Virus record (IMG/VR): IMGVR_UViG_3300009161_000031
Span: 37,004 to 101,003 of that record
DNA: 64,000 bases
DNA from: a virus
Direction: 5' to 3' (one strand)
Below, piece after piece: positions 2,709 to 20,587 of this stretch. Numbering within the stretch: the first letter of the stretch is position 1; every line of letters starts with the position of its first letter. Under the pieces are notes generated by a model, which was given only the letters and a program-made list of their open reading frames with translations, ran no database searches and was not told the origin of the DNA. The translations under genes were made by a program, and so were the position numbers.

Positions 2709-3730
2709 AACAAACATAAAGACAGAGAACAAGGTTCCGCTATGATAACGGAACTAATGACGGGGGTCTGCTGTGCCATAATGTGCATTCTATTTGAGAG
2801 TTTTTTGATATAGAATAGGCTATTTCTAGCTGTTTGTAGATGATATTCGCCTATATATAAAAGAATTTAATATAAAACACTCCCTTATATAACCCTTACT
2901 AGGAGAATATAAGAGTCGTTTAGACCCGCCGGTTATGGGTTTTGTTGGTGTTTGGTTCATATGTATAGTATATCAAGATTATTGTAAAGTTAGAGGTTGA
3001 GTATCTCCCTCCGCAAATATGATATTAAATTATTTTATTTGTGTTTTTGTAGAAAAAGTCAAAATTTGTTCCGCTGGCGTTTTTTACATATAATGTTTCT
3101 TTATAGGTAAGTTGGCGATAATTGTTGGCGGTATTTGTTGTATTCAGTTATTGCCCGCAAATATCCTCAACAATTGTGGCATTCTTTAACTCCATAAATA
3201 AAAAAGAAAAATATCTTTTCATAAATTCGGGACTCTATTGTTTTCCTCTATTCTTAGAGTAATTAAAACAATAAATACTAACCGTTATATCCCCGCAAAT
3301 AGTTTAGACGGGATTTGAAGAATTTATCCTCTAGTCTAAACTCATATATCTACCAGCAAGTAATTACTCCAAGGTTAGACTGTCACTTTTGTGGCAGCCG
3401 AATCTGGAGTATTTTTTTTGCCCTCATTTAACGCAGTAAAAAAAAGTTTCTTTTTTCAGTTTTAGAATCAAAAACTCGAGAAAATATAAAGTTTATTTAT
3501 TTCCAAATAGGTAGACGTTAAAATAACCCCAACATCTAACACCAGATAAAACGGTCGTTTTTTGCTCCTTCGTCGCAAAAAGGGACGACCGCCTAATGTG
3601 GCTGTCTGATGTTGATGTTTGTGTGTGCGGTATTTATTACACATCCCATTTGTTATCGCACCAGAGGAGGCTGTTGTTCCAAAACAGCCGCAGGCTGTTT
3701 TGGAACAACAGGCCAACAGCTATTAGACAA

Positions 3731-3779
3731 AAAAAAGGGGAGAGGCTGAGGGAACGTGAAACCCCCAACCTCTCCCCTA
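3731..3779 (-). terminator. intrinsic terminator for minus-strand genes
   Basis: AGGGGAGAGG...CCTCTCCCCT stem; the A-run on + gives a U-tract on the minus strand just after the stop at 3787. Confidence 0.7.
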
Positions 3780-3786
3780 ATCTTAT

Positions 3787-3957
3787 TTAGAAGTTTACGT
3801 CTTTTACGCTAACTCCAACATTTACGAGATTAGTTTCATCATTTAGAATCCCACTCATTTGAGCGGTAACTAAATCTTCCATTTCTCTATCTGTAAGCAT
3901 TTTTCCTTCATCGCATTCCATACCGATTATCATTGTAAATAGTCTTAGTGTTTTCAT
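3787..3957 (-). CDS. hypothetical protein (56 aa, MKTLRLFTMIIGMECDEGK...)
   Basis: read manually; abuts the stop of 3958-4257, AAGGA upstream. Confidence 0.6.
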   Translation of the reverse strand: MKTLRLFTMIIGMECDEGKMLTDREMEDLVTAQMSGILNDETNLVNVGVSVKDVNF

Positions 3958-4257
3958 TTAGAAGTCCTTTCCAAAGTGTTCATTTATTTTATAGGCTAGG
4001 TATTCTTTATTTCCATTAGCGGGGTGATTCTTTATGCTGTTTTCTAATGATGACTCTTCAGCCAACTTTACTTCAGACTTATTACCGTAAGTCTGAACAT
4101 AAAGTTGATGCCAAGCACTTTCTGCTTCTGATTTGAGAATGTCAATCTCAAACTCTAAGTCTGCTATCTTTCCATCTTTCTTACCTTTACCCATAAGGTA
4201 TCCGGCAAGAACAGAACCCATCATTAGTACTACCTGAAACCAAAATAGATTTCTCAT
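3958..4257 (-). CDS. N-terminally membrane-anchored coiled-coil protein
   Basis: hydrophobic N-terminus LFWFQVVLMMGSVLAGYLMG followed by heptads; GGGAG RBS. Confidence 0.7.
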   Translation of the reverse strand: MRNLFWFQVVLMMGSVLAGYLMGKGKKDGKIADLEFEIDILKSEAESAWHQLYVQTYGNKSEVKLAEESSLENSIKNHPANGNKEYLAYKINEHFGKDF

Positions 4258-4547
4258 TGAATAAAATCTCCCGTCAACTCAAACAAACCATCTAGTTTGT
4301 TATTTACAACAATAAGCACTCTCTTTAGTTGAGCATTTTGTTCTTCTAAGTCATAAAGATTATTTAGTTTTTTGTGTATCTCTTCCATAGTTCTTGTTAT
4401 TCTGGCAATCTCAACATCTTTCTCTACAACAGTCATTTCTAAAGAAGTAATCACTTCTGCTAACTCAAAGTTAGAATAGTTCTCTAACTCAAAGATTCTT
4501 GCTTGTCTAACACTACTAGGAATAAATACTTCTTCTCTATTCTCCAT
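4254..4547 (-). CDS. coiled-coil hypothetical protein
   Basis: heptad-rich 97 aa; AGGA RBS. Confidence 0.7.
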   Translation of the reverse strand: MENREEVFIPSSVRQARIFELENYSNFELAEVITSLEMTVVEKDVEIARITRTMEEIHKKLNNLYDLEEQNAQLKRVLIVVNNKLDGLFELTGDFIQ

Positions 4548-4964
4548 TTTTATTTCCTATCTATTAGGCCCGATTAGTCGGGGGTAAGGGGTGGAACCGA
4601 TAAGGCCACCCTAGCACACTCTCCCGCTTGTCTCGCATTGGCAAACTAAAAAAGAAAAAACCAAAATTTTGATCCGGGGAATAGTTCTACATAATGTTTT
4701 CGCATAGAGATGTTTGAGATTATTATTGTTGATTATTGTTGCCGTTAGTTATTCGCTTATTTATTCCAGTTTATTGTTGAGATAAGACGAAGAGATGCTG
4801 GCGTGCCAAAATCGCCGGAGGCGATTTTGGCACGCCAGCCCTGAAGCGGACGCGTCAAGGGGAGGGGCCGTCGCCCCTCCCCTATTCGCCGCAGACCTTC
4901 GGTGCCTGCCTTCCCTTCGGGTCGGGGGCTTGTTCCCCTACCCGCTACTAGTAACCATCGCAGG

Positions 4965-5231
4965 CTAGGCTCTCACCCGTACTTGGGCGAAACCCTCGGG
5001 CGAGAAGTCTACGCGGCACTCTCCCGCTTGAACCTCCGCCCAATGCTTGCGAATGGTTGCGGACACCGTAGGCCGGTCGCTTTTGGCGACAGCGCCGAAT
5101 GTCCCCTTGAGGGCTACGCCTTGCTTGGGGGTAACCTTCGCAAGAGTCTCAAGAAGTTCTACAATAAGAACCTTCTTACGACCTCGTGGGGAAACCTGTA
5201 CGGAATCCGCTGAAATGAACTCATCGTTCAT
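4965..5231 (-). CDS. cassette C1, family A protein (VQVSPRGRKK...GTFG...DFSPEG.AQVR), putative DNA-binding
   Basis: GGAGGTG RBS before ATG 5231; paralogs at 6039 and 7659. Confidence 0.85.
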   Translation of the reverse strand: MNDEFISADSVQVSPRGRKKVLIVELLETLAKVTPKQGVALKGTFGAVAKSDRPTVSATIRKHWAEVQAGECRVDFSPEGFAQVRVRA

Positions 5232-5504
5232 TTGTCTAATCACCTCCCGTCTTGAGCCGTTGCTCTTAGTGTTTCGAAGAATCCGAACTTTACCGGATTA
5301 CCTGACAAAGAACAGACTACCGGCCTAGAGCTATTGAGTCCACTTCTGCTCATTCTTTTATTTTTATTCTCAATAACTAACCTACTAAAAAAGCCTCATT
5401 ATTTGACACCACTAGATGCTGTCGTGCCAGGATCGCCTGCGGCGATTTTGGCACGACAGCCCACTCCGTAGCCTCGGGGGTTTCCCCCCGAGGATTTGCG
5501 GAAC

Positions 5505-5714
5505 TTAGACGTACTGCTTCTCACATAGGCAGCATTTGTCGTTGTAGTAAAAATCTGATTCCTTGCGCTGTTTGATGGTCTGCCTGCGAACGATTAGGGG
5601 TATGTAACTACCGCCTTTGGCTCGGGGGTCATTGTGAAAACAGTCGTGACAGACTAAGCCGTTACCGCCTAGGCGATGAACAAAATAACAGCCTTTGAGT
5701 TTTGGAGAAGTCAT
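5505..5714 (-). CDS. cassette C2, small Cys-rich protein (CHDC, CCLC; possible Zn finger)
   Basis: own promoter, AAAGG RBS and terminator hairpin. Confidence 0.75.
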   Translation of the reverse strand: MTSPKLKGCYFVHRLGGNGLVCHDCFHNDPRAKGGSYIPLIVRRQTIKQRKESDFYYNDKCCLCEKQYV

Positions 5715-6038
5715 TATGAGCCTTTCGGACTAGGGGACTTGATTACATACTGAAATCTACTAGCTAACGGCCTGCGAGTCAAGCCTTAGCGAGTATTTAT
5801 TCTATTTATTTATTTATCTAACCCCAAGCAATGCTGGCGCTCCAAATCGCCGGAGGCGATTTGGAGCGCCAGCCCCGAGCGCGACAAGGCCCGCTCTGAG
5901 GGGGCAGAGCGGGCCTTGAGCTAGAGTAATTCGGGGGAGAGGTTCGCACCTCTCCCCCTACGGCTGCGGCTATCGGGATTGCCGCTGGCACCTCGCACCC
6001 CGTAGCAAGCGGGGGGCGCTACTGATACGATTCATCCG

Positions 6039-6305
6039 CTAGCGGATACGCACCTGCGCGTATCCCTCCGGTGAGAAATCAATACGGCATTCGCCGCTTT
6101 GTATAACGCACCAGTGCTTCCGAATCGTTGCTGCTACCGTCGGGCGGTCACTCTTGGCGACTACTCCAAAGGTTCCCTTAAGCGCAACACCCTGCTCGGG
6201 TGTGACGTTCGAGAGAGTGTCAAGCAAATCCTGAATAAGAATTTTCTTGCGCCCTCGCGGGGATACCTGTACGGCATCAGCAGGTAGAAATTCATCTGCT
6301 GGCAT
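6039..6305 (-). CDS. cassette C3, family A paralog
   Basis: GAGGTG RBS before ATG 6305; aligns with C1 and C6 over the full length. Confidence 0.85.
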   Translation of the reverse strand: MPADEFLPADAVQVSPRGRKKILIQDLLDTLSNVTPEQGVALKGTFGVVAKSDRPTVAATIRKHWCVIQSGECRIDFSPEGYAQVRIR

Positions 6306-6577
6306 AATAATCACCTCGATTCTTGGGCCGTTGCCCGATAGTTACGATGGGAACCTTGCCGTTCCCTGCTGACAAAGACCAAACTAATCGCGATGCCGTT
6401 CCCAGTCAATTTCTGTACGTCATTATTACCTCAAGAAACTTATCATTTGCGCACATTCCATAAAATGTAAATACCGCTACGACTTGACACGGGCGTGCCT
6501 TTTTGCGAGAGCAAAAAGGCACGCCCGCCCTGAGCAACCGGCATCAGGGCGAGCGTACGGCCTTTGGAGGCTCGCTG

Positions 6578-6868
6578 TTAGGCGAAATCCTCGGGGGTGA
6601 TGGAGTCCCAATCCATTGCGTCTACGACTTCCTCGGGGCTAATCCCGAGGAGTTCGGTCACCTCTAGGTGACTAACGCCTAAATCTAGCGCTCGGGCGAT
6701 AATGGCGGGGCCGAGAGCGTCAAAGGCGCGTGACATAAGAAGCACACCCGTTATGGCGTGACGGATAGAGTCGGGGTCGCCATTGACGACCAACTCGTGA
6801 AGGTTAAACATTGCCTGTACGCTTACCTCTAGCGTTTCTGTTAGTAGATTACGCTCTTGCTCGTTCAT
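6578..6868 (-). CDS. cassette C4, helical protein with possible C-terminal HTH (LGVSHLEVTELLGISPEEV)
   Basis: own promoter and RBS; the HTH call is inference. Confidence 0.8.
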   Translation of the reverse strand: MNEQERNLLTETLEVSVQAMFNLHELVVNGDPDSIRHAITGVLLMSRAFDALGPAIIARALDLGVSHLEVTELLGISPEEVVDAMDWDSITPEDFA

Positions 6869-7086
6869 TCGGTGGAGCCTCTCTGTTAGGTGACTTGCTT
6901 ACAAAAGAGAAACTACTAGCTATTGGCCTGCGAGTCAAGTCGGAGCGGGGATTTATTCTATTTTATTTACAATGCCAAGCCAAGAGATGCTGGCGCTCCA
7001 AATCGCCGGAGGCGATTTGGAGCGCCAGCGCATAGCAAAGCCCCCACCGTTGCCGGTAGGGGCTTTTATTGCTAAGGCGGGGTGGC

Positions 7087-7443
7087 TTAGTTATCCAGCC
7101 CCTTAAACGTGCGTTCGATGTCTCGGATTGTCTGCGCTGCCCACGCATAGGCGAGTCCCTGTAACTCGTCTGCGATAGGCTCCCCCACTAGAAGGCAGAG
7201 AGCGATTCTCAAGCCCTCTTGCTCTCCCTCTATTTTTAGGGCTTCGGCATTGTGCGGGTAGTTAAATGCGTCTAGGCGTAACTCGCTTATTCCTAGTCGA
7301 ATGGCTATGGCCTCAACAGCCGATTTGAGGTCTTTAACCCTTTCCATTATCGGATAATGGAAACCTGCCTGATAGTGAAAAAAGTTAAAGATCGCGTCTT
7401 TAAGTTTTTTTTCGTATGCTTCTGCGCTAGTCGCGATGTCCAT
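7087..7443 (-). CDS. cassette C5, hypothetical protein
   Basis: own promoter, AAAGG RBS and terminator. Confidence 0.8.
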   Translation of the reverse strand: MDIATSAEAYEKKLKDAIFNFFHYQAGFHYPIMERVKDLKSAVEAIAIRLGISELRLDAFNYPHNAEALKIEGEQEGLRIALCLLVGEPIADELQGLAYAWAAQTIRDIERTFKGLDN

Positions 7444-7658
7444 TGGGAGAGCCTTTCGGTTGGGTGGCTTGGGTACAAATGAGAAACTACCAGCTCACGG
7501 CCTGCGAGTCAAGCCGGAGCGGGTATTTATTCTATTTATTTTTGTTAGCGATACCAGATAATGCTGGCGCTCCAAATCGCCGGAGGCGATTTGGAGCGCC
7601 AGCGCATAGGAAAGCCCCCGCCTCACGGCAGGGGCTTTCCCGTATTCCGCTAAGGGGG

Positions 7659-7925
7659 TTAGCGGATTCTTACCTGAGCGTATCCCTCAGGCGAAAAGTC
7701 AATACGGCACTCTGAAGCCTGAACCTCGCTCCAATGCTTGCGGATAGTCGCCGCAACCGTTGGCCGGTCAGACTTAGCAACCTCACCGAACGTACCTTTG
7801 AGAGATACGCCTTGCTTTGCGGTTACTTTCTTTAGTGTTGCGAGTAGGTCGGGGATTAGGATTTTCTTTCGACCTCGGGGCGATACCTGAACATCGCTAG
7901 CGTCAATAAACTCATCTACGGGCAT
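7659..7925 (-). CDS. cassette C6, family A paralog
   Basis: AAAGGAAAG RBS before ATG 7925 (MPVDEF); the ORF-track start 8015 lies in the promoter. Confidence 0.85.
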   Translation of the reverse strand: MPVDEFIDASDVQVSPRGRKKILIPDLLATLKKVTAKQGVSLKGTFGEVAKSDRPTVAATIRKHWSEVQASECRIDFSPEGYAQVRIR

Positions 7926-8195
7926 TTGGCACTTTCCTTTTCTTAGTAGGTAGTTAGAGTAGAAAGTCTCCGCTCCAACAGAGATAAATCTACTCCTCCC
8001 TACTAAGTGAGTCAAGTTGGAGCGAGAGTTTTTCTAGAAACTTTTTGAGTAGCTGTCGGCCCGAGCGTTTATTCCACCTAACATAAAACCTAAGACGACT
8101 TGACACGGGCGTGCCTTTTTGCGAGGAACGAGCAAAAAGGCACGCCCGCCCTGAGCAACCGGCATCAGGGCGAGCGTGCGGCCTTGCGGAGCGGA

Positions 8196-8423
8196 CTAGA
8201 TAATCACGCCCTCCATCAGGTTTACCAACGCATCAGCCGTAGTTACCGGAGCGTAGCCGTAGGCAATAGCGGCGATTATTTCTCTATCGCCATTTTTTGC
8301 GGCGACTCTTAGAACGTGAGAGATAATGGCGACGACATTAGAGTCATTGCTTATCTTATGGGCGATAGAATCGGTGCGATTTATTAGAGCGCTTCTTATG
8401 GCTTGAGTTTGTTCAGGATTCAC
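8196..8423 (-). CDS. cassette C7, hypothetical helical protein
   Basis: GTG start after AAAGG; flanks nearly identical to those of C4. Confidence 0.75.
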   Translation of the reverse strand: MNPEQTQAIRSALINRTDSIAHKISNDSNVVAIISHVLRVAAKNGDREIIAAIAYGYAPVTTADALVNLMEGVII

Positions 8424-8709
8424 GTTGGAGCCTTTCGGTTAGGCGACTTGCTTACAAGAGAGAAACTACCAGCTATTGGCCTACGAGTCAAGCCGGAGAA
8501 GGTATTTATTCTATTTTATTTTAGAACTGATACCGAGCAATGCTGGCGCTCCAAATCGCCGGAGGCGATTTGGAGCGCCAGCCCTGAACGCAACAAAGCC
8601 CGCTCTGAGGGGGCAGAGCGGGCTTTGCGATAATGGCGGCCCCCCACGCCCCGTATGCGGGCGTAATGCCTTCAGCAAACCCAACGGGTTATGCGGGGGG
8701 GGCCACGAA

Positions 8710-8850
8710 CTAGAAGTTGAGAGACTCAATCCACGCTGCGACAATCGGCAGGACTATGAACGCCGAGATGCCGAGCAGATACGGGAAGACCTGCCTCCAC
8801 CTATCTTGGAGACTAAAGAATACCTCTACGCTATCGAAACGACGGTTCAT
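8710..8850 (-). CDS. cassette C8b, 46-aa single-pass membrane protein MNRRFDSVEVFFSLQDRWRQVFPYLLGISAFIVLPIVAAWIESLNF
   Basis: read manually; TGATG coupling to C8a. Confidence 0.65.
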   Translation of the reverse strand: MNRRFDSVEVFFSLQDRWRQVFPYLLGISAFIVLPIVAAWIESLNF

Positions 8851-9035
8851 CAGATTACCTTTCCGATTAGTGTGATGACTAGAGCGCCTAGACCTATTAG
8901 GGCTAGGAATCCTAGCGTTATTAGGGTCACGCCGAGTAGCCCTGCGGCCACCTCTGCGAAACTATCTTCGCGAACATTCTTGAACCACACGTTAGATAGT
9001 TTCATAGTTTTCCTTTGCTCGGGGTTGGTTTCCAT
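8850..9035 (-). CDS. cassette C8a, small membrane protein
   Basis: long hydrophobic C-terminus; ATG 9035 is 6 nt after the -10 box (leaderless), or an internal start MKLSN after AGGAA. Confidence 0.7.
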   Translation of the reverse strand: METNPEQRKTMKLSNVWFKNVREDSFAEVAAGLLGVTLITLGFLALIGLGALVITLIGKVI

Positions 9036-9231
9036 AGTTAGAAACTACTAGCTGATGGCCTGCGAGTCAAGTCTATTTGGTTATTTATTCTAAGTTTATC
9101 TAATACCGATACCAGCCTTTGCTGTCGTGCCTCACATTTATGTGAGGTGTCGTGAGGCACGACAGCCCGATAGGTTTCCGGGCGCGAAAAAGCCCCCCTT
9201 GCGGGGGGCTTCTGCCGACTCTCCGAGGCCG

Positions 9232-9573
9232 CTAGGCGACCTCGGGGCGGTCTTCCCGGCAGTCGTGATGCCCGCTGTAGCAAAACTCGTCGCTATCGAA
9301 CTCTATAGAGTCATCGCCCTCAACGAAAATAAGCATCCCTGCGGCCATAGCCTCGTAATGCCCCTCGGGGTTCTGAATGATAGCCATGTAATCCCTGTCC
9401 GTTTGAGGGTCAAGCGCCTCAACGGCATAACCGATTAGAGCAGTTTTATCCGCCCAGTCCGCGTCCCAAAAGTTTCGAGACTCAATAAAGCGCATAAGTC
9501 TCCATTCTTTGACATCAAGTAAGCCGCCAAAGTGAAAATCTAGCAAGTGGCGAACGGTTTCGATGGTCTCCAT
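9232..9573 (-). CDS. cassette C9, family B acidic protein
   Basis: AAGGGG RBS; paralog of C10 (IETVRHLLDFH...RNFW...NPEG.YEAMA...DEFC...H.DCRE.RPE). Confidence 0.85.
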   Translation of the reverse strand: METIETVRHLLDFHFGGLLDVKEWRLMRFIESRNFWDADWADKTALIGYAVEALDPQTDRDYMAIIQNPEGHYEAMAAGMLIFVEGDDSIEFDSDEFCYSGHHDCREDRPEVA

Positions 9574-9828
9574 TTTTTCCCCTTAGATCGGGAGTGCGGG
9601 GTGCGCTCCAACAAGGACAAAACTAATCGCGTTACCTATTTGAGTCAAGTTATAGAGGCAAATTGAGGAAAAGAATAGGTTCACTCTAAGTAGCCAAAAG
9701 CTATCACCACTCAACGCTGGCGTGCCTCACATTTTTTTGTGAGGTGCCGTGAGGCACGCCAGCCCGATGGGTTTCCGGGCGCGAAAAAGCCCCCCTTGCG
9801 GGGGGCTTCTGCCGACTCTCCGAGGCCG

Positions 9829-10176
9829 CTAGGCAGCCTCGGGGCGAGATTCCCGGCAGTCGTCGTGCTGGTCGATACAAAACTCATCAAGGTCGAAATC
9901 TAAGATACCTGAGGATTCTATGTGGCTAAGCATACCGACAGCCATCGCTTCGTAGTATCCCTCGGGGTTATTCATAATGACCTGATAATCATCGGCGGTC
10001 TGAGGGTTGATAACGCTCACCGCAAAACCGATAAGCGTCATTTTGTTTTCCCAATTTGCTTCCCAAAAGTTACGAAACATAATGGCACGCATTAGTTTCC
10101 ATTCATCGTGGAATGGCATAGTAAATGAATCCTGATGAAAATCTAGCAAGTGGCGAACGGTTTCGATGTTGTCCAT
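9829..10176 (-). CDS. cassette C10, family B acidic protein
   Basis: AAGGGG RBS; paralog of C9. Confidence 0.85.
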   Translation of the reverse strand: MDNIETVRHLLDFHQDSFTMPFHDEWKLMRAIMFRNFWEANWENKMTLIGFAVSVINPQTADDYQVIMNNPEGYYEAMAVGMLSHIESSGILDFDLDEFCIDQHDDCRESRPEAA

Positions 10177-10419
10177 TTTGTCCCCTTAGGTTGGGAGTGC
10201 CGGTTGCGCTCCAACAAGGACAAAACTAATCGCGTTTCGGTTTTGAGTCAACTTCTGCTAACGATTTGAGCAAAAGAATAGGTTCACTCTAAGTGGCCAC
10301 CAGCTACCACCAGACCCAGCGGGCGCACGCTACGAGGAACGAGTAGCGGGCAGCGTGCGCCCGCCCCCGAGGGGGAGTCACGGAGAGTGGTTGCCCACCC
10401 TCCGTGACCCGACCGGCCC

Positions 10420-10725
10420 CTACAGGTAGTCGTGGGCGATGTTGCGGATTATGTCGTTTACCCAACGGTCGGGCCAATCGAGGTAATCCTGAGACTCTGC
10501 GAATACGTCCACCGCATTGGCAAATGTGGTCACGCCTACGATAGCGTGCGGGAATCCCATACGGACTAAGGATAGGCTCTGAGTCCATTCCATAGAGTCT
10601 AGGGCTAGGATAAGGGGCATTAGGGCATCTATTGAGTGAACAGATCGCGCCTCGCCGCTGGCGTGAGCCTCAATGAGGCTAAGGCGTAGCGCCTTGCCCT
10701 CTGCGTCTAGTGAGTAATTCGGCAT
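10420..10725 (-). CDS. cassette C11, hypothetical protein
   Basis: own promoter, AAAGG RBS; MPNYS start resembles C13-C16. Confidence 0.8.
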   Translation of the reverse strand: MPNYSLDAEGKALRLSLIEAHASGEARSVHSIDALMPLILALDSMEWTQSLSLVRMGFPHAIVGVTTFANAVDVFAESQDYLDWPDRWVNDIIRNIAHDYL

Positions 10726-10970
10726 AATCGTGGAACCTTTCAGGTGAGGTGCGCCGGTTGCGCTCCAACAAGGACAAACCTACTAGCGTTCCGAATCTGA
10801 GTCAAGGCGGGAGAGCAAATTGAGGAAACAATGATGTTCACTCTAAGTGGCCAAAAGCTACCACCACACTCAGCGGGCGCACGCTACGAGGAACGAGTAG
10901 CGGGCAGCGTGCGCCCGCCCCCGAGGGGGGGTCACGGAGAGTGGTTGCCCACTCTCCGTGACCGGGTCGG

Positions 10971-11216
10971 TTAGAAATCGCACTCGTGGTTTACGTCGTG
11001 GTCGTCAAGGTTGGGAAGTTCGTGCCTCCACGCTTGGTAGAGAATCGCTTCCTCTAGCGCTGCTGCGCTGTAGTTTAGGATTGTGTAATCGAGCCACTTA
11101 GCGCCCGACTCTGCGGAAATCGTGCGAGAAATCTCGCAACGAAATGCGCGAACTAATGGGGCAAGTGCCGAACGCGACGCGGTTTCGGCGGCTAGGACTT
11201 TCTGTGTGTTGGTCAT
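10971..11216 (-). CDS. cassette C12, leaderless hypothetical protein
   Basis: TAGATT-N6-ATG, no RBS or leader. Confidence 0.75.
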   Translation of the reverse strand: MTNTQKVLAAETASRSALAPLVRAFRCEISRTISAESGAKWLDYTILNYSAAALEEAILYQAWRHELPNLDDHDVNHECDF

Positions 11217-11427
11217 AAGAGAAATCTACCCTAGATTAGATTCTGAGTCTAGTTATGCGGCTAAAGATTGTCTCAAGATGTTGAGGTTAGAATACTCACT
11301 CTAAGTGGCCAAAAGCTATCACCAGCCGTTGCGGGCGCACGCTACGAGGAACGAGTAGCGGGCAGCGTGCGCCCGCCCCCGAGGGGGGCCACGGAGAGTG
11401 GTTGCCCACTCTCCGTGACCGGGTCGG

Positions 11428-11640
11428 TTACTCCTCCCAGCCGACGATGCGGTCGGGGACTTCCCAGTCCTCAACGTCGCCGTCGTCCTCGCTGCGGACA
11501 GAGCGGGCGTAGACCTCGGGGTCATCGAAACTGAATTCGTAAACCTTGACCTCGATAGGAGCGCCCCACTGAATTCCAGAGAGGGCCGCGTCCCACTCCA
11601 TTGCCAATTCGCTTGCGGTCTTGCCAGAGACGTTCGGCAT
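11428..11640 (-). CDS. cassette C13, acidic small protein (family D tail EDDGDVEDWEVPDRIVGWEE)
   Basis: own promoter; C-terminal 20 aa shared with C15. Confidence 0.8.
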   Translation of the reverse strand: MPNVSGKTASELAMEWDAALSGIQWGAPIEVKVYEFSFDDPEVYARSVRSEDDGDVEDWEVPDRIVGWEE

Positions 11641-11908
11641 CTGCCAAATCCATTCTCTCAGGGAGTCCGCCGGTTGCTCGCTCCAATAAGTACAAACTAC
11701 TCGCGTTCGGAATCTGAGTCAACTTCTGCGTGCGAATTGAGGTAAAAATGATGTTCACTCTAAGTGGCCAAAAGCTATCACCACACAACGCTGGCGCACG
11801 CTACGAGGGACGAGTAGGCGGCAGCGTGCGCCAGCCCGGGCCAAGGTCACTCTGAGTGATGAGGGGGGAGCGCCCCGACCCTTGCGGGCCGGGGCTTGAC
11901 CCCTAGAC

Positions 11909-12217
11909 TCAGATTGAGAGTCTAAAGACCCTGGCTAGGTCTATGATTTCATCGCAAGCGGCTATTGCCTCGGTGCGAGGGACATCGTCGCCGCGTAGTG
12001 GGGCTAGGTCACCCAACACGCTTTGCATAGCGTGGCTGTAGGGGTTATCCATTCCCCAAATGCCGGTGGTCATGAGCACGTTGAAGATAACGTGAGCGTT
12101 CATGAACGTGCACCCCCACAATTCCTGTATCCGTTCCTTAATAAGTACGGAATTGGTGCTTACGGTTACCGCCGCATCGGTTGTCGCGGTTGCGACCTCT
12201 CCAGAGAAGTTCGGCAT
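11909..12217 (-). CDS. cassette C14, family E protein
   Basis: 102 aa, paralog of C16. Confidence 0.8.
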   Translation of the reverse strand: MPNFSGEVATATTDAAVTVSTNSVLIKERIQELWGCTFMNAHVIFNVLMTTGIWGMDNPYSHAMQSVLGDLAPLRGDDVPRTEAIAACDEIIDLARVFRLSI

Positions 12218-12542
12218 GTGGCCAAATCCATTCTCTCGGGGAGGGAGCCGGTTGCTCTCTCCAATAAGTACAAACTACCAAACATCAGTATGCGAGTCTA
12301 TTTGTGCGCCTAATTATTACCTCAAGATTAAAAAAAGAATCCAAAAAAAACCAGCTCCCGGCTTGACACGGGCGAGCGGGTGTGATTTGTTCTGCGGCCA
12401 CTCTAAGTGACATTTTTTCCCATACCAGCCAACGCGGGCGAGCTTAGCACACGGTAGATCGTGTGTGCGTATGGGGCGGCTCGCCCGCCGAACCCCAAAG
12501 GGGAGGGGAGAGGCTGGAGCCTCTCCCCTTTGCCCCCGGGAG

Positions 12543-12728
12543 TTACTCCTCCCAGCCGGTGATGCGGTCGGGGACTTCCCAGTCCTCAACATCGCCGTCA
12601 TCCTCAAGCGGGAACCGGTCGGGGCTGACCGTGTGGAGGATGCTGTCCAACTGTCCGAGCGGATGCCCGAACATGTGTTCTATCAAGCCGCGTGCGTCAA
12701 ACGCGGGGCTAGCAGAGAAGTTCGGCAT
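12543..12728 (-). CDS. cassette C15, acidic small protein (family D tail)
   Basis: N-terminus as C14 (MPNFS), C-terminus as C13. Confidence 0.8.
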   Translation of the reverse strand: MPNFSASPAFDARGLIEHMFGHPLGQLDSILHTVSPDRFPLEDDGDVEDWEVPDRITGWEE

Positions 12729-12863
12729 GTGGCCAAATCCATTCTCTCGGGGAGGGAGCCGGTCGCTCTCTCCAATAAGTACAAACTACCAGCTAATGGC
12801 TTGCGAGTCTATTTCTGCGGGCTATTTCTTTGCATTATTTCTTTTTTTATTTGTGAGCAGAAC

Positions 12864-12892
12864 TTGACAGCGTACTAAACTTGTACTAGACT
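12864..12892 (+). promoter_or_regulatory. plus-strand promoter TTGACA-N17-TAGACT pointing into the C16 palindrome
   Basis: near-consensus boxes with a 17-bp spacer; no credible ORF downstream. Confidence 0.55.
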
Positions 12893-13024
12893 ACCCCACC
12901 ACTCTGCGCTGGCGCACGCTACGAGGGACGAGTAGGCGGCAGCGTGCGCCAGCCCGGGCCAATGTCACTCTGAGTGATGAGGGGGGGGGGAGCGCCCCGA
13001 CCCTTGCGGGCCGGGGCTTGACCC

Positions 13025-13333
13025 CTAGGCTGCGTCTACCCAATCCATCATTAGGTAAACGATTACCTCGGAGGCAATCATCGCCTCGGAGTGTGGAGTA
13101 TTAGTCCGACGCAGGCCGATTAGTGAGGCCATTACTCTCTCGCCTGCGGTATGGGCCATTCCCTCGGTTGCCCAAATCATAGTGGACGATAGGGCTCCGA
13201 ATACCGCTTGAGCGGTTCTTGAGTCAACATTCCACAATTCTTTGATGCGCTTAGTGATTGCTATTGAGCAAGGCGCTACGGTTACCGCCGTATCGGTTGC
13301 CGCGATTGCGACCTCTCCAGAGAAGGTAGGCAT
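13025..13333 (-). CDS. cassette C16, family E protein
   Basis: 102 aa, paralog of C14. Confidence 0.8.
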   Translation of the reverse strand: MPTFSGEVAIAATDTAVTVAPCSIAITKRIKELWNVDSRTAQAVFGALSSTMIWATEGMAHTAGERVMASLIGLRRTNTPHSEAMIASEVIVYLMMDWVDAA

Positions 13334-13651
13334 TTGGCCAAATCCAGTCTCTCGGGGAGCGAGCCGGTTGCTCTCTCCAATAAGTACAATTTACCAAACA
13401 TCAGTGAGTGAGTCTATTTCTGCGCCTCATTGTTTCCTCAAGATAATAAAAGAAATCCAGCTCCCGGCTTGACACGCAGCCGCGGCTGTGATTTATTCTG
13501 CGACCACTCTAAGTGACCAAAAATGCCAAACCAAGCCGAGCGGGCGAGCTTAGCACACGAAGAGCGTGTGTGCGTATGGGGCGGCTCGCCCGCCGAACCC
13601 CAAAAGGGGAGGGGAGGGGCCGGAGCCCCCCCCCCTTGCTCCCCCGGAGGG

Positions 13652-13945
13652 TTACTCCTCGTCTCGGAAGACGGGGTACCAACGCTCACCCTCGGGGGTG
13701 ACGATGAGAACATCGGCAGCCTCGGCAGCGGCGACGAGAATGTCCACCGTCGCTTCGAGTATTAGCAACTCGAAGGTTGTGGTGAACGAGGTGACCGCGT
13801 CAAGCGCCTTGTCCGTAGCCTTGAACGCGTCGGCCAACTCTTGCGCCTCGTAGCGGTTCACGTAGAACCCCTCTAGGCGTTTCGCGAGAACCGTCGCGTC
13901 GGCTACCGCGGGTGCGGTCTTGCTAAGAGAGAGAATCGGCTTCAT
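13652..13945 (-). CDS. cassette C17, hypothetical protein (MKPILSLSK...)
   Basis: start 13945 or in-frame 13957; the ORF-track start 14011 lies in the promoter. Confidence 0.75.
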   Translation of the reverse strand: MKPILSLSKTAPAVADATVLAKRLEGFYVNRYEAQELADAFKATDKALDAVTSFTTTFELLILEATVDILVAAAEAADVLIVTPEGERWYPVFRDEE

Positions 13946-14267
13946 GCCGTAGTCCATTCTCTTGGGGAGTCCGCCGGTTGCTCGCTCCGATAAGTACAAA
14001 CTACCAAACACGCCTATGCGAGTCCATTTCTGCGCCTCATTTTTTCCTCAAGATAAAAAAAAGAATCAAAAAAAAACTAGCTCCCGGCTTGACACGCAGC
14101 CGCGGCTGTGATTTATTTTATGACCACTCTAAGTGACCAAAAATGCCAAACCAAGCCGAGCGGGCGATCCTAGCACACGGTAGATCGTGTGTGCTTGGGC
14201 GGCTCGCCCGCGTGACCCCAAAGGGGGAGGGGAGAGGCCGGAGCCCCTCCCCTTGTTCCCGGCTCCC

Positions 14268-14477
14268 TTAGACTTCGTACCCGTGGCGGGTAAGAATGTC
14301 CCGGGTCATTGAGACGATTGTCTCGTTGAGGGCAACCATCTCAGCCCCGAACGATTCGCCGTGAGAGCGAATGTTGATGTCAATCCCCGCATTGCGGATT
14401 GACATTCTCAGCCGGGACTCAGCGTCGCGAACGAAGTCGCGAAGCACACTTGCCCCACTCTCGGTTATTCCGGCCAT
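14268..14477 (-). CDS. cassette C18, hypothetical protein (MAGITESG...)
   Basis: AAGGAG RBS before ATG 14477. Confidence 0.8.
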   Translation of the reverse strand: MAGITESGASVLRDFVRDAESRLRMSIRNAGIDINIRSHGESFGAEMVALNETIVSMTRDILTRHGYEV

Positions 14478-14799
14478 AACTGTCTCCTTAGGTTCGTGGA
14501 GCGAACCGGTTGTTCCCTCCAACAAGTACTAACCTATCGCGTCCCCGTGTGCGAGTCCACTTCTGCGCCTAAATGTTTCCTCAAGATAAAAAAAAGAATC
14601 GAAAAAAAACCAGCTCCCGGCTTGACACGGCGGCGCGCCTGTGATTTATTCTGCGGCCACTCTAAGTGACATTTTTTCCGCCCCCAGTTCTCGCGGGCGA
14701 TCCTAGCACACGGTAGATCGTGTGTGCTTGGGCGGCTCGCCCGCGTGACCCCAAAGGGGAGGGGAGGGGCCGGAGCCCCCCCCCCTTTTCCCGGGAAGT

Positions 14800-15045
14800 T
14801 TACTTTGTCCACTTAATGGCAAAGTCGATTGCCTTAGGCAACATCACTTGGATGTCGTACTCATCCTCGGTGTAGTAGTCTGTGATGAGGTACTGTAGCG
14901 CCTCACTTATGACCTCGGGGGAGAGTGTGGCAACAAACTCCATGGCCGCCTTGACGCACATGATAGGCATGTGAATCGGGTCAAGGCTAACGGCCTTGGC
15001 GTGTGCCGCGATTGCGGCCTTGCTAAGAGAGAGAATCGGCTCCAT
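14800..15045 (-). CDS. cassette C19, hypothetical protein (MEPILSLSK...)
   Basis: start 15045 or 15057; N-terminus shared with C17. Confidence 0.75.
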   Translation of the reverse strand: MEPILSLSKAAIAAHAKAVSLDPIHMPIMCVKAAMEFVATLSPEVISEALQYLITDYYTEDEYDIQVMLPKAIDFAIKWTK

Positions 15046-15328
15046 GCCGTAATCCATTCTCTAGGGGAGTCCGCCGGTTGCGTGCTCCGATAAGTACAAA
15101 CTACCAAACACGCGTAGGTGAGTCCACTTCTGCGCCTCATTATTACCTCAAGATAATAAAAAAAATAAATCCGGCTCCCGACTTGACACGGGGCCGCGGC
15201 TGTGATTTATTTCACGGCCACTCTAAGTGGTCAAAAAAGCGTATCCATATTTAGCGGGCGATCCTAGCACACGAAGAGCGTGTGTGCTGTCCGGGCCGCC
15301 CACGTAACTGTTGTTCTGGGGGGCCGCT

Positions 15329-15438
15329 GGGCGCGGCGAGCCGCGATGTGGGGCGCGGCGAGCCGCGATGTGGGGCGCGGCGAGCCGCGATGTGGGGCGC
15401 GGCGAGCCGCGATGTGGGGCGCGGCGAGACGCGATGTG
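15329..15438. repeat. 5 x 22-bp tandem repeat GGGCGCGGCGAGCCGCGATGTG
   Basis: exact tandem copies, last with one mismatch; internal palindrome CGCGGC-GA-GCCGCG. Confidence 0.95.
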
Positions 15439-15535
15439 GGGTACGTCAAGCTGACTCCAGGCCAGAACCAGGGCTCGGGCCTGGGCGCGCAGAGGGGGGA
15501 GAGGCCGGAGCCCCTCCCCCGCCTCGCCTGCGGGG

Positions 15536-15649
15536 TTATGCGATGCAGTAGATTAGGAAGCAGAGCAGCTCTGCCCTGCGCTCTTCGCTCAAGAGCGGGG
15601 TCGTGTGGTACGTGTAGTCGAGCAACATAATCAGTTCGCCGTGTGTCAT
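15536..15649 (-). CDS. cassette C20, 37-aa peptide MTHGELIMLLDYTYHTTPLLSEERRAELLCFLIYCIA
   Basis: read manually; AAAGGAA RBS, own promoter at 15691-15719, hairpins after the stop. Confidence 0.65.
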   Translation of the reverse strand: MTHGELIMLLDYTYHTTPLLSEERRAELLCFLIYCIA

Positions 15650-15845
15650 AGTTTTCCTTTTTTCGGGGAGCCGGTTGCTCCGATAAAGATAACTTATCAC
15701 CGGCCCTAGTGTGAGTCAAGTTGGAGCGGGTATTTCTTTTATTTTATTTATCGGGCCGCGCTGTTGGCCGCGCTGTCGGGGTAGGTCGCGTGGTGTGTGC
15801 TGTTGTGTGAGTAGGGCAGGGCGGGTACGCCCTGCTGGCTCTGCC

Positions 15846-15943
15846 CTGGCCTGACCCAGGGTCGCGAGCTGGCCTGACCCAGGGCCGCGAGCTGGCCTGA
15901 CCCAGGGCCGCGAGCTGGCCTGACCCAGGGCCGCGAGCTGGCC
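15846..15943. repeat. 4.3 x 23-bp tandem repeat CTGGCCTGACCCAGGGCCGCGAG
   Basis: direct reading; first copy has one mismatch. Confidence 0.95.
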
Positions 15944-16015
15944 GCGTCCTGGCCTACACGCGACAACGCCGCGACCCACGCTATCGGGTCGCGGTGTTCG
16001 CCTATGGCGGTACGA

Positions 16016-16382
16016 TAACCCGCACCCCTTGAGACTCTCGCACTAGGCGAGAGTCTCGCGGGCTACGTGCTAGGCGCTTAGGGCTATTAGTTCGGTTGCG
16101 ACGTTACCGGCGTTGGCGATTGTGTGGACTAGTGCGGCCTCAAGCGCGGTAGTCTGTCCATCGGTCGCAAGCATTAGCAACATCTCGCGGATAGTCCGGT
16201 CGGCGTTGGAATGGCCAAGAATCGCCTCGGTCACTCGGCGCGTTATTTCGTCAAGCCGTATTTCTACTGCGCGGTGCTGGTGGTGATTCATTATGTCCCC
16301 TTTGGTTGGTTGGTTGGTGGTACGGTAACCCGCACCCCTTGAGACTCTCGCACTAGGCGAGAGTCTCGCGGGCTACGTGCTA
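16016..16382. repeat. 57-bp exact direct repeat (16016-16072, 16326-16382) with hairpin GAGACTCTCGC-ACTAG-GCGAGAGTCTC
   Basis: each copy starts, on the minus strand, at the TAG of a small gene. Confidence 0.95.
16070..16291 (-). CDS. cassette C21, hypothetical protein
   Basis: AAAGGGG RBS. Confidence 0.75.
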   Translation of the reverse strand: MNHHQHRAVEIRLDEITRRVTEAILGHSNADRTIREMLLMLATDGQTTALEAALVHTIANAGNVATELIALSA

Positions 16383-16661
16383 AACGCTTACGTGGTGGAA
16401 CGCTATCACCGCGTTCGCGTTCTCGGCACCGATTACGTTCCCACCGATTACGTGACCGGCGAGACGCGCAAGCCATACGCGGCGCTCTTTAGTTGGCATC
16501 GCGGCTATTGCTATCGCGGCACCACGTAGGCGAGGCTCTGACTCAAACAGTAGGGCCGCGTTTGCCTTGAGGCGGAGACTCAAGGCATCTTGCTCCCCTA
16601 CTACTTGCGCGCGGTCCGCGTTGCCACCGGTGTCCGGTAGGTCTAGCGTGGAATCGAACAT
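16380..16661 (-). CDS. cassette C22, hypothetical protein (MFDSTLDLPDTGG...)
   Basis: AAAGGGG RBS before ATG 16661. Confidence 0.7.
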   Translation of the reverse strand: MFDSTLDLPDTGGNADRAQVVGEQDALSLRLKANAALLFESEPRLRGAAIAIAAMPTKERRVWLARLAGHVIGGNVIGAENANAVIAFHHVSV

Positions 16662-16887
16662 TTGTTCCCCTTTGGTTAGATTCCGAGCGGGTGTCTCCCG
16701 CTCGGCCTTGCCCCTAAAGCGTACCGCGTCGCGGGTGCCGCGCATAGCATCGGGGCCGCGATTAGGCGAAGAATCGGGAGCTTGACCGCGCAGCGTGGCC
16801 AGCTATGGGCCGATTCTCACGCCGCGTGGTCGTTGGAGGTCGTTCTGGCAGATGGTGCGCCAGCACGACAGACTTCTCCTAATATTT

Positions 16888-16948
16888 ATTCAATTTTTCA
16901 AAAATATGTATTCAAGTTTTTGAATTCTTGCATTCAAGTTTTTGAATT
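16888..16948. repeat. three 22-bp-phased ATTCAA-GTTT-TTGAAT sites
   Basis: starts 16888 (degenerate), 16910, 16932, at the GC/AT junction. Confidence 0.8.
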
Positions 16949-17097
16949 TTTGGGTTGTTGTATATTTATGATGAAAGGGGGGCTTTTGGGGTTGTTTGGT
17001 TATATTTATTGGTATGTAGGCACTCTCTGTAAGGTTCGCATGTTTCGTCGCTCTACGGGGCACACAGGGGGCTCTCCGGGGATTGTACACGCCTATA

Positions 17098-18105
17098 TCA
17101 TGGGCCTGTTTGCATACCTATTGTTGCTTTGTTGTGTTTGATGATTTGGCTTGCTACCCATTGGGCGACGGGTGCTGCGATGCCGTTTCCGATCATGCGG
17201 AGTCTGGGTGTATCTTTGACGGCTCTGCCGTCTGCGAGCGTGGCGCAATGGCCTTCGGGCCAGCCCATGAGTCGTTCGCATTCCAATGGGCTAAGCCGCC
17301 GGAGTTGATGGGTCCCGCCCGTTTCGGGTCTGAGGTTATCGACCGCAATGAGGGTCGATTCGCGTTCATGGGTGCTCGCGACCAATGATGGGGCTATTGT
17401 TCCTTCGCCGTATTTTCCATATCCTGTTGATACAAAGATGCTTGGCGCTGGAGGATCTCCAAGAGTTGTTCCGGGATCGGGGCGTTGCGGCTTTGAATTC
17501 GTTTCATGATGCCTGCGCAAGCTTTTGGGCTGAGGGTATATCGTGGGTGCGGACTCTCCTCCAGCATGGAAATCAGCGATGAGAAAGACTCTTCGCCTGC
17601 GTTGGGATAAGCCGAAGTTTTGAGCATCCAGGATTCGCCATTCGATTGCCATTGCCCCCAGCCCAACCATACTTTCGAGTACACGGAGAAATGACTGTCC
17701 ATGTTCGGCACTAAGGAGTCCAACAACATTTTCTGCAACGGCGTATCGGGGATAAATTCCATCTGTGGCCTCTCTCATTTCTCGGATAATGCGGGCCGCT
17801 TCAAAGAAGAGAACTGACCGCTGACCTTTAAAGCCCTGCCGGGTGTCACCATAGACACCAGCGTTGCTTACATCCTGACAGGGGAACCCAAATGTGATGA
17901 TATCAACAGGCTCTATGTCATATCCGTTGATATCAACTATATCACCATATCTAGTGACGTTAGGCCAATGCCGTTCTAGGATGCTAGTGCAGCGCTCGTC
18001 TTTTTCGACTTGCCACTTGCATTCTAGTCCCGCAGCATCAAAGCCTAAATCTAATCCACCTACTCCAGCAAAAAGTGACCCATAGGTCATTGTTTTAGAT
18101 ATCAA
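17098..18105 (-). CDS. dcm: DNA (cytosine-5)-methyltransferase
   Basis: motif I SLFAGVGG, IV GFPCQ, VI ENV, VIII Q.RRRVF, IX RRLSPLECERLMG, X GNG. Confidence 0.95.
   Translation of the reverse strand: MISKTMTYGSLFAGVGGLDLGFDAAGLECKWQVEKDERCTSILERHWPNVTRYGDIVDINGYDIEPVDIITFGFPCQDVSNAGVYGDTRQGFKGQRSVLFFEAARIIREMREATDGIYPRYAVAENVVGLLSAEHGQSFLRVLESMVGLGAMAIEWRILDAQNFGLSQRRRRVFLIADFHAGGESAPTIYPQPKSLRRHHETNSKPQRPDPGTTLGDPPAPSIFVSTGYGKYGEGTIAPSLVASTHERESTLIAVDNLRPETGGTHQLRRLSPLECERLMGWPEGHCATLADGRAVKDTPRLRMIGNGIAAPVAQWVASQIIKHNKATIGMQTGP
17394..17762 (-). CDS. nested alternative-frame ORF inside dcm (putative second polypeptide)
   Basis: GAGAGG RBS-like element before ATG; SL..MLEE.PHPRY.LSPKACAGIMKR segment resembles overlapping-frame products of two-polypeptide C5 MTases. 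Confidence 0.6.
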   Translation of the reverse strand: MEFIPDTPLQKMLLDSLVPNMDSHFSVYSKVWLGWGQWQSNGESWMLKTSAYPNAGEESFSSLISMLEESPHPRYTLSPKACAGIMKRIQSRNAPIPEQLLEILQRQASLYQQDMENTAKEQ

Positions 18106-19885: not shown

Positions 19886-20587
19886 TTAACGAATAGAGAT
19901 GTTGTAGACCATAAGCGAGCGAGACTTGGGTCCCACAATACCATCAGGCACGAGCCTCCAGAACCGTTGAAAATCTTTGGTCGCCGCAGTGGTTTGCGGG
20001 CCGAAGGAACCATCTCCAATAAGATGTGTCCCATTGGCATAGTTCAACGCACACTGCCAATACTTGACCTCTTCATTTTGGGACCCTCCCTTAAGAATAG
20101 GACCATCTTTAACTTTATTAATAAGATCACCTTTAAGAACATCACTCGCTTTAATTTGCGGGACATTATATGTAACACCAGGAACGAGGCATGCATTAGT
20201 CCAAGGACGATTATAAGCAGACCAGGAGCCAACACCATATGCTGTTCCGCGGGCTTCTGCGGTACTACCATTCCCTAGCGATATGGCTACATGCCCAGAA
20301 GGACCATACCCAGAGTATCCGCTGTTCGCTCCCATAAAGAGCAATGCTCCGGGAGTATGGATAGCTTGGTCGATAGAGATTAACGTATGGTTATCTCTTC
20401 CCATGATTGCTTGATTCCAACTCCCATTCGGAAGTGATACCCCATTTCGACCAAAAACCCAATGGGTATATCCAGAACAATCAAAAGAACGAGGATTACG
20501 AACTGAAACAGCAGGGGCAGACGCATAGACATATGGCTTCCCGAACTGAGATCTTGCTGTATCAACAATTTGATTTGGTGTTGTCAT
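19886..20587 (-). CDS. NlpC/P60 peptidoglycan peptidase with C-terminal peptidoglycan-binding domain (putative endolysin)
   Basis: GKPY, FDCSG, GHVAISLG; C-terminal DG.FGP.T..A...FQ....L..DGIVGP. Confidence 0.9.
   Translation of the reverse strand: MTTPNQIVDTARSQFGKPYVYASAPAVSVRNPRSFDCSGYTHWVFGRNGVSLPNGSWNQAIMGRDNHTLISIDQAIHTPGALLFMGANSGYSGYGPSGHVAISLGNGSTAEARGTAYGVGSWSAYNRPWTNACLVPGVTYNVPQIKASDVLKGDLINKVKDGPILKGGSQNEEVKYWQCALNYANGTHLIGDGSFGPQTTAATKDFQRFWRLVPDGIVGPKSRSLMVYNISIR

Follow-up and report, generated by a model that had tools for sequence, protein, structure and literature searches.

We analyzed a 64,000-nucleotide stretch of viral DNA (the window), bases 37,004–101,003 of the 101,003-bp IMG/VR record IMGVR_UViG_3300009161_000031, and describe here an array of 22 small-gene units that occupies 4,790–16,900 of the window and is rich in guanine and cytosine (GC). 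The comparators are all contigs from short-read metagenomes, and everything reported below rests on short-read assemblies. The units, from U01 (16,661–16,380) to U22 (5,231–4,965), are arranged head to tail on the minus strand and are read from 16,900 down to 4,790. Their parts follow in a set order: an AT tract, a promoter-like site, a leader of 30–110 nucleotides (nt), an open reading frame (ORF) of 37–118 amino acids, and 3′ hairpins, which in most units include a long palindrome. An earlier note on this DNA had proposed about 22 self-contained cassettes spanning 3,552–16,870. The number stands and the extent holds from 4,790 on, but the units lie on the minus strand, and 3,552–4,790 is taken up by an AT-rich three-gene operon, V1–V3 (3,787–4,547, minus strand), not by such a cassette. 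This operon, itself bounded by palindromes, forms the downstream boundary of the array, and a C-5 cytosine DNA methyltransferase gene (17,098–18,105, minus strand) forms the upstream one.

The ORFs of the array look like real genes. Between the window and its orthologues on a 3.3-kb sediment contig, L109, the ratio of nonsynonymous to synonymous polymorphism (pN/pS) is 0–0.56, and GC content is higher at third codon positions (GC3) than at second positions (GC2). Twenty of the units each carry one promoter-like site of the pattern T[TGA]GACT-N17-TA[GA]NNT (5,314–15,719, minus strand). This pattern matches 20 times in the 64-kb window, always in the array and on the minus strand, against 0.40 matches expected from shuffles; because it was derived from the same 20 sites, the count is partly circular, whereas the strand, position, and spacing of the sites are not. 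Every site has an AT tract before it and an ORF start 30–110 nt after it, an arrangement that suggests promoter activity. Across IMG/VR, a degenerate form of the pattern returned single scattered matches only, as chance would give. Five units, U04–U08, additionally carry an inverted copy of the −35 region, plus-strand CTCCCGGCTTGACAC, upstream of the AT tract and facing away from the gene (12,348–12,400, 13,445–13,500, 14,065–14,120, 14,598–14,650, and 15,159–15,210); it may act as a divergent or antisense promoter, or be what is left of an inverted frame.

Long hairpins (stem of at least 13) are concentrated in the array, which holds 22 of the 26 found in the whole 101-kb genome. Most ORFs have a hairpin downstream, often with a GNRA-type tetraloop, followed by a longer palindrome whose stem reaches up to 19–20 perfect pairs. 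Folding of six 3′ flanks yielded tandem double hairpins in five (z −5.5 to −10), with U05 at z = −2.0. At least three palindrome types occur. The type 1 palindrome at 8,542–8,582 combines a 19-bp perfect stem with a 3-nt loop and the base GCTGGCG...CGCCAGC; identical copies lie at 7,563–7,603, 6,989–7,029, and 5,833–5,873, and variants with compensatory arm changes at 4,797–4,839, 5,418–5,460, and 3,669–3,713. The type 2 palindrome at 10,319–10,364 has a 14-bp outer stem and a 16-nt interior and recurs at 10,873–10,918, 11,331–11,376, 11,790–11,835, and 12,908–12,953; after U10–U12, palindromes of this type have a GCAA-tetraloop hairpin before them and CACTTAGAGTG after them. A further motif, CACTCT(A/G)AGTG, is present as CACTCTAAGTG or CACTCTGAGTG in 11 copies, all on one strand and within 10,285–15,229, where 0.07 were expected. 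The shorter hairpins are candidate terminators, and on the economical reading the long palindrome could be a back-up terminator that lacks a U tract, or an insulator. A promoter, a long palindrome, and an operator-like motif had been claimed for every unit; the promoter-like site is indeed found in 20, but the palindromes vary in type and the CACT...AGTG motif is not in all of the units.

To see how these parts are combined, we compared the upstream frames, ORFs, and downstream frames of the units pairwise. The upstream frames form three families (U04, U06, U07, and U09, with U05 and U08 more loosely attached; U10, U12, U13, and U14; and U15, U16, U18, U19, and U21) and the downstream frames seven, and the ORFs yield only four: U17/U20/U22 (80% amino acid identity), U13/U14 (9,232–10,176, minus strand; 56%), U07/U09 (41%), and U08/U10, which are alike in the last 20 residues only. 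The three groupings do not coincide, and units whose frames score 60–86 have ORFs no more alike than background. U16 and U19 illustrate this best, with upstream frames 80–93% identical, 25–30 of 30 positions identical in the 3′ flank, and an ORF interior at background; identity drops to that level within ≈15 nt of the start and stop codons. Similarly, the 3′ flanks of U10, U11, and U12 (U12 and U11 at 10,420–11,216, minus strand) are 76–86% alike around ORFs that share no similarity. Both sets had been singled out in the earlier note as common frames around unrelated ORFs, and the comparison bears this out (80–100% frame identity for U16/U19). The reverse also occurs: U17 (7,659–7,925), U20 (6,039–6,305), and U22, all on the minus strand, encode one small-protein family (PRGRKK...IRKHW) under upstream frames that are unrelated to one another. 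Exact repeats of up to ≈57 nt are common to three frames. Similarity breaks off at ORF ends or just inside ORFs; U04 and U06 are alike in their first 13 codons only, so some boundaries lie within coding sequence.

An iterated search with 260 ORFs, drawn from this array and its relatives, brought no additional families together. The claim that the ORFs are unrelated thus survives profile and transitive searches for most of them, the paralogs U17/U20/U22, U13/U14, and U07/U09 being the exceptions. Among 5.8 billion proteins, U16 and U19 each matched themselves and one near-identical relative, too few for profiles, so their unrelatedness is to be read as an absence of detectable similarity.

Related loci show that the content and order of the array change. 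An alignment-based search with the U20 family, which has the invariant motif PRGRK...IRKHW, identified 19 such loci (a single-sequence search of viral contigs with U20 found none), and most relatives that cover enough of the array hold two or three copies of the family. A close relative is L109, whose U17 is 100% identical in amino acid sequence to that of the window. Its units run U10-U12-U11-[one U13/14-like gene]-U15-U16-U17, with U11 and U12 in swapped order. In the swap, promoter, ORF, and hairpin have moved while the short linkers from palindrome to CACTTAGAGTG stay in place. The single U13/14-like gene is 53–55% identical to either U13 or U14 and sits between frames that are 97–100% identical to those of the window, against ≈55% identity in the ORF interior. 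A Logan contig from the sediment run X4 carries the U13 and U14 replacement as well, passing from 9,288 to 10,136 with 244 other letters between, and a second X4 contig skips 12,809–13,505, the stretch that holds U07, which is probably a deletion. In these short-read contigs, the end points of all three changes fall in frames.

Because such contigs can be mis-joined across repeated frames, or can mix strains, we considered whether the array itself is an assembly artefact. The ≈57-nt exact repeats in three frames would invite mis-joining, the Logan contigs do break at frames, and the "terminal repeat" of the record is just a 123-bp assembly overlap. Every unit-specific segment nevertheless turns up at ≥99% identity in an independent Logan assembly of run X1, with fairly uniform depth (≈23–48, without multiples); run X3 also recovers them at low depth, and run X2 holds 92% of the sampled words. 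This support covers the sequences and depth of the units, not the order of all 22. One breakpoint of the L109 swap shares just ≈17 nt, which is below the k-mer size of any assembler and thus too short for an assembly switch, and the allele that replaces U13/U14 is genuinely diverged and present in both a Joint Genome Institute (JGI) contig and a Logan contig. With sibling arrays of the same design in more than 10 other contigs, an artefact is exceedingly improbable.

More distant siblings keep the flanks of the array and differ in what lies between them. In L113 and L110, the C5-methyltransferase gene beside the array is retained at ≈71% nucleotide identity, V1–V3 at 84%, and a further stretch at 94%; V1 and V3 are 97–98% identical at the amino acid level in L113, whose array content differs. 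Only 6–7% of the ≈10-kb arrays of L113 and L110 matches the array of the window; U15b and the U20 family account for these matches, and no frame is shared. The frames of these two genomes are instead 72–82% alike within each genome, and all six related arrays analyzed contain direct frame repeats of 70–250 nt or more at 67–96% identity. Frames that are alike within a genome and different between genomes indicate concerted evolution or wholesale replacement. Copies of the U20 family stand in tandem beside the AT-rich boundary in L107, L113, and L115 and are interleaved with U18/U19 and U21 in the window, as expected if the U18/U19 and U21 cassettes were inserted. Together, L109, X4, and the siblings support the earlier proposal that recombination between frames adds, removes, reorders, and replaces small genes: order and content are not fixed, and ORFs and flanks diverge at different rates.

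These comparisons also bear on the view that the array is a regulatory architecture, grown by tandem duplication, in which frames are kept for strong, insulated early expression with occasional gene conversion, the ORFs are fast-diverged duplicates, and any exchange of cargo is incidental. Adjacent units do tend to share frames, the four ORF families plainly consist of paralogs in tandem or nearly so, the frames hold recognizable parts (AT tract, −35 and −10 elements, leader hairpin, terminators), and frame homogeneity within but not between genomes is the signature of concerted evolution. What this view does not explain is why ORFs in 85–95% identical frames lack nucleotide, protein, or transitive similarity, since point divergence cannot obliterate an ORF and yet leave near-identical flanks on either side. 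Near-identical genomes, moreover, differ by an ORF of ≈55% identity inside 97–100% identical frames and by two swapped units, and neither the confinement of U08/U10 similarity to 20 residues nor the unrelated upstream frames of the U20-family paralogs fit simple duplication. We think this explanation unlikely.

We next turned to how the units might recombine. Outside the window, the genome encodes RecA-like (72 bits) and RuvC-like (43 bits) proteins, at 12,345–13,298 and 14,965–15,528 of the whole genome. Searches of the complete 101-kb genome found neither a tyrosine nor a serine recombinase nor a Y1 HUH transposase (PF00589, PF00239, and PF01797, the first positive in control genomes), nor RecT or ERF. 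The earlier statement that there is no recombinase thus holds for the window, and the wider search that it called for turned up the RecA-like and RuvC-like genes elsewhere in the genome. Within the array, mosaic patches of 20–50 nt are dispersed over promoter, linker, and the inside of the palindrome, which points to homologous recombination or gene conversion between frames and not to cleavage at one defined site. This pattern, and the presence of RecA-like and RuvC-like proteins in a genome that lacks a site-specific recombinase, makes homologous recombination between frames the likely mechanism; site-specific recombination as the main mechanism was rejected, there being no such recombinase in the genome.

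Taken as a whole, these observations make it likely, in our judgment, that the array is a hyperplastic early-gene region of about 22 small ORFan genes in insulated units, with frames that serve as portable homology for shuffling by general recombination. The composite frames of 200–300 bp (terminator, palindrome, promoter, leader), repeated in a few families, are what would supply this homology. Each unit would comprise an AT tract, a host SigA-type promoter (TTGACT-N17-TAGTTT), a structured leader, the ORF, a tetraloop terminator hairpin, and a second long palindrome. Homologous recombination between frames, carried out by the phage RecA-like and RuvC-like proteins, by host proteins, or by both, would duplicate, delete, reorder, and replace ORFs and would homogenize the frames within each lineage, although the pathway is deduced from gene content and patch distribution. 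A gene landing in the array would find ready-made expression signals. The array genes are presumably expressed early, and their products may act in host takeover or anti-defence.

The palindromes invite a different proposal, a dedicated, structure-specific exchange of cassettes akin to an integron without integrase, in which they would be recombination sites in the form of hairpins or cruciforms. In variants of this idea, a RuvC-like resolvase or an unrecognized nuclease cuts the palindromes, or single cassettes are excised as circles. Most units end in a palindrome of 40–50 nt whose arms co-vary from copy to copy around a constant base, GCTGGCG...CGCCAGC, with a TGGT likewise constant downstream, and palindromes with a 3-nt loop have GNA on one strand, a stable DNA triloop. 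The near-confinement of long hairpins to the array, the RuvC-like gene in the genome, and one breakpoint region of the L109 swap that takes in a palindrome can be added on the same side. A complete genome without tyrosine or serine recombinase or Y1 HUH enzyme is hard to reconcile with dedicated exchange, however, as are mosaic patches scattered instead of lying at a fixed point and similarity boundaries that in some cases fall inside ORFs. Palindrome types also vary between unit families, and the sibling arrays have others. I-shaped terminators and insulators are common in Actinobacteria, and a palindrome placed right after a terminator hairpin fits such an element equally well. Dedicated exchange is in our view very unlikely.

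Several points weigh against shuffling by general recombination between frames and temper our preference for it. The sharp boundaries between frames and ORFs fit gene conversion of frames around resident ORFs equally well as movement of the ORFs themselves. L109 and the X4 population may share a habitat or sampling campaign and are possibly not independent, and where DNA is rich in repeats, short-read assemblies are least reliable for the order of units. A generic scanner for sigma-70 promoters and terminators found no enrichment in the array (13 vs 9.8 and 22 vs 18.5, respectively), because the −10 element here is TAGTTT and the scanner's TATAAT and U-tract rules are ill suited to such sites. 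Nor does the model explain what the long palindromes do; they could serve as back-up terminators or in a more specific capacity. Finally, four metatranscriptome contigs from run X7 that are 100% identical to stretches inside U22, U20, U16, and U12 may reflect DNA carry-over; as they show neither strand nor ends and do not exclude DNA, we did not count them as evidence of transcription.

The products of the array resemble little that is known. We scanned 21 array ORFs (every one except U03, U17, and U22), together with V1 and V2, against Pfam and PHROG and obtained no credible family, the sole PHROG match among array ORFs being a weak one of U20 (E 0.0015) to a family of unknown function. An AlphaFold model of the U20 family (mean predicted confidence, pLDDT, 76) had no match in the PDB at E ≤ 0.001, and the winged-helix-like matches listed for it were too weak to interpret. 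Rfam had no match within the array. Against 50,697 cultured phage records, neither a nucleotide search with the array and 20 kb of the structural region nor a tblastn search with U20 returned a match.

The array stands apart from the genome in base composition, with a GC content of 52–59% compared with 33–43% in the rest of the genome and a GC3 of 60% in its ORFs compared with 31% in late genes. Among related loci long enough to show it, most have a block of 50–79% GC beside a genome of 34–40% GC. The island may stem from a higher-GC gene pool, codon matching to the host for immediate-early translation, escape from Lsr2-type silencing, or GC-biased conversion that results from recombination; a search for an Lsr2 homologue in the genome found none. 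The arrays of the window (4,790–16,900), L106, L107, L110, L113, L115, and L118 also strongly avoid TGCA, TTAA, TATA, and/or ATAT. The most-avoided tetramers of each array all belong to these four, with observed-to-expected ratios mostly of 0.04–0.15, and TGCA outside the array in the window is not avoided (ratio 1.4). The array thus has an oligonucleotide signature of its own as well as its own GC content.

Building on these traits, one can read the array as a clade-wide, GC-rich, integrase-free platform for gene capture: cruciform palindromes would be cut by the phage RuvC-like resolvase, leading to RecA-mediated cassette exchange, and high GC together with avoidance of TGCA, TTAA, and TATA would allow escape from Lsr2-type silencing and restriction. 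If this were true, the palindromes and the composition would be functional parts of gene capture, not by-products, but we accord it a low probability.

The two sibling arrays have a compositional peculiarity of their own. GATC occurs at 30–42 per kb in L113:1200–10000 and L110:3000–11000, 7–10 times expectation and including sites inside ORFs; most copies read CCGATCGG or GATCRG, and a spacing of 17 nt is frequent. Just outside these arrays it falls to 0–2 per kb, and in the array of the window it is at ≈0–1 per kb. A C5-methyltransferase gene adjoins the GATC-rich arrays, and the sites could be decoys, methylation targets, or regulator sites.

The genome that carries the array is of siphovirus type, with a portal protein ≈43% identical to those of Streptomyces BE-cluster phages, a 2,557-residue tape-measure protein, a major capsid protein, and a prohead protease, and it encodes DnaB, primase, and the alpha subunit of DNA polymerase III. 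Two WhiB-like genes (3,687–3,812 and 20,115–20,297 of the whole genome), an Rpf-type transglycosylase domain, and a mycobacteriophage GP88 domain indicate an actinobacterial host. Judged from these features, this uncultured freshwater phage is probably a siphovirus of an actinobacterial host that is related to the Stanwilliamsviridae. The phage is of virulent type. Gene order in the window follows that of Streptomyces phage NootNoot (Stanwilliamsviridae), in which minus-strand small genes are succeeded by plus-strand genes for glycosyltransferase, ribonucleotide reductase, portal, protease, capsid, and tape measure. Within that family, the BE-cluster Streptomyces phages carry 12-kb terminal repeats and are far poorer in GC than their host (PMC7650747). 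The minus-strand small-gene cluster of NootNoot is in the equivalent position and presumably lies within the long terminal repeat reported for its cluster. The array is probably the region for early or host-takeover genes in a clade of Stanwilliamsviridae-like actinophages. X1 depth is ≈23–48 over the array and ≈20 from 16,350 upward, without a clean two-fold step and with GC as a confounder; the drop at 16,350 could be the margin of a long terminal repeat that collapsed in assembly, or could simply reflect GC bias.

Several known systems resemble the array in part. A moron, in the concept of Hendrix and Juhala, is an autonomous promoter-gene-terminator unit that lies between phage genes and differs in composition from its surroundings. 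The units of the array likewise combine promoter, ORF, and terminator with deviating composition (GC3 of 60% vs 31%); morons, however, are usually single, scattered, and expressed from the prophage, whereas about 22 units stand here head to tail, with shared frames, in a virulent-type phage and presumably for early lytic expression. NootNoot resembles the window in gene order and in having small genes on the minus strand, with motifs repeated between them and GC raised, although its GC island is weaker (57% vs 48%) and its repeated motifs are 22–44 nt long and 65–90% alike, far shorter than the frames described here. Compared with the host-takeover modules of SPO1, T5, and the Stanwilliamsviridae, the array ORFs have no homologue in the cultured phages searched, and to our knowledge cassette swapping has not been described for those modules. 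Integrons share an ordered series of small, mostly unrelated ORFs separated by palindromes, with content that varies between relatives. They differ in having an integrase (PF00589, absent here) and attI, in cassettes that are mostly promoterless where nearly every array unit has a promoter-like site, and in attC architecture, which the perfect palindromes of the array, of several types and with scattered breakpoints, do not have.

The nearest precedent is the PeSLs (promoter-early stem-loops) of T4-type phages, promoter/stem-loop composites that flank ORFans and are exchanged by homologous recombination without a dedicated integrase (Arbiol et al. 2010, PMC2839356; Comeau et al. 2014, PMC4122927). 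For PeSLs, mini-circles, promoter strength, and terminator activity have been measured (PMC2839356, PMC4122927). The array repeats, as judged by sequence, sigma-70-like promoters next to stem-loop terminator elements, which lie in a hyperplastic region directly upstream of ORFans, all within 12 kb, and, as with PeSLs, the indels and replacements between close relatives end in these elements. Unlike PeSLs, the array comes from a siphovirus of an actinobacterial host and not from a T4-like myovirus, so it falls outside the T4-type lineage. Its frames span 200–300 bp with two hairpins, a palindrome of 40–50 nt, and sometimes the CACT..AGTG motif, where a PeSL is a short promoter plus stem-loop, and it forms one contiguous 12-kb run of about 22 units in a GC-rich island (52–59% vs about 38%). 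By analogy, the array would work like PeSLs, yet it is not a homologous element. The suggestion that this is an undescribed gene-shuffling system therefore does not hold, as PeSLs are already published (PMC2839356, PMC4122927) and the moron concept and the SPO1 module cover the rest. The array is best classed as PeSL/moron-type modular shuffling in a new lineage, in a more elaborate form; the principle itself is known, and the novelty over the precedents lies in the GC-rich island and in frames of ≈250 bp that include palindromes.

This classification extends PeSL-type shuffling, so far seen in T4-like myoviruses of Gram-negative hosts, to distant siphoviruses of Actinobacteria. The extension suggests convergent evolution of self-expressing cassettes as a general route of early-gene turnover in virulent phages. 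As a natural case the array is unusually clean: it combines 22 insulated units with examples, seen directly between genomes, of swapped units, a replaced allele, and what is probably a deletion. Its ≈17 ORFan families, including the multicopy PRGRKK...IRKHW protein, are candidates for screens of host-takeover and anti-defence functions in Actinobacteria, and the promoter-terminator frames could serve as parts for actinobacterial synthetic biology. A GC island in an AT-rich phage, together with GATC-saturated sibling arrays, raises questions about selection at the DNA level in the region expressed first.

Some smaller features of the locus also deserve mention. Two tandem-repeat blocks flank the 37-residue U03 within 15,307–15,960, one of ≈6 copies of 22 nt (15,307–15,473) and the other of ≈5 copies of 23 nt (15,823–15,960). 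They resemble iterons or protein-binding arrays, and contigs suggest that their copy number differs in the X4 population. An AT-rich spacer at 16,880–17,000, between the methyltransferase gene and U01, contains three copies of a TTCAAAAACTTGAAT-like sequence and may be an operator or promoter region for U01 and U02, both of which lack the standard array promoter. The whole genome has only two transfer RNA genes (Glu and Leu), compared with ≈40 in the BE-cluster Streptomyces phage Coruscant. U15a/U15b (8,710–9,035) is a bicistronic unit for two small membrane-like proteins; it is the sole cassette besides the U20 family in common with L113 (L113:3407–3672), where it lies in the opposite orientation relative to the array and U15b is 84% identical in amino acid sequence.

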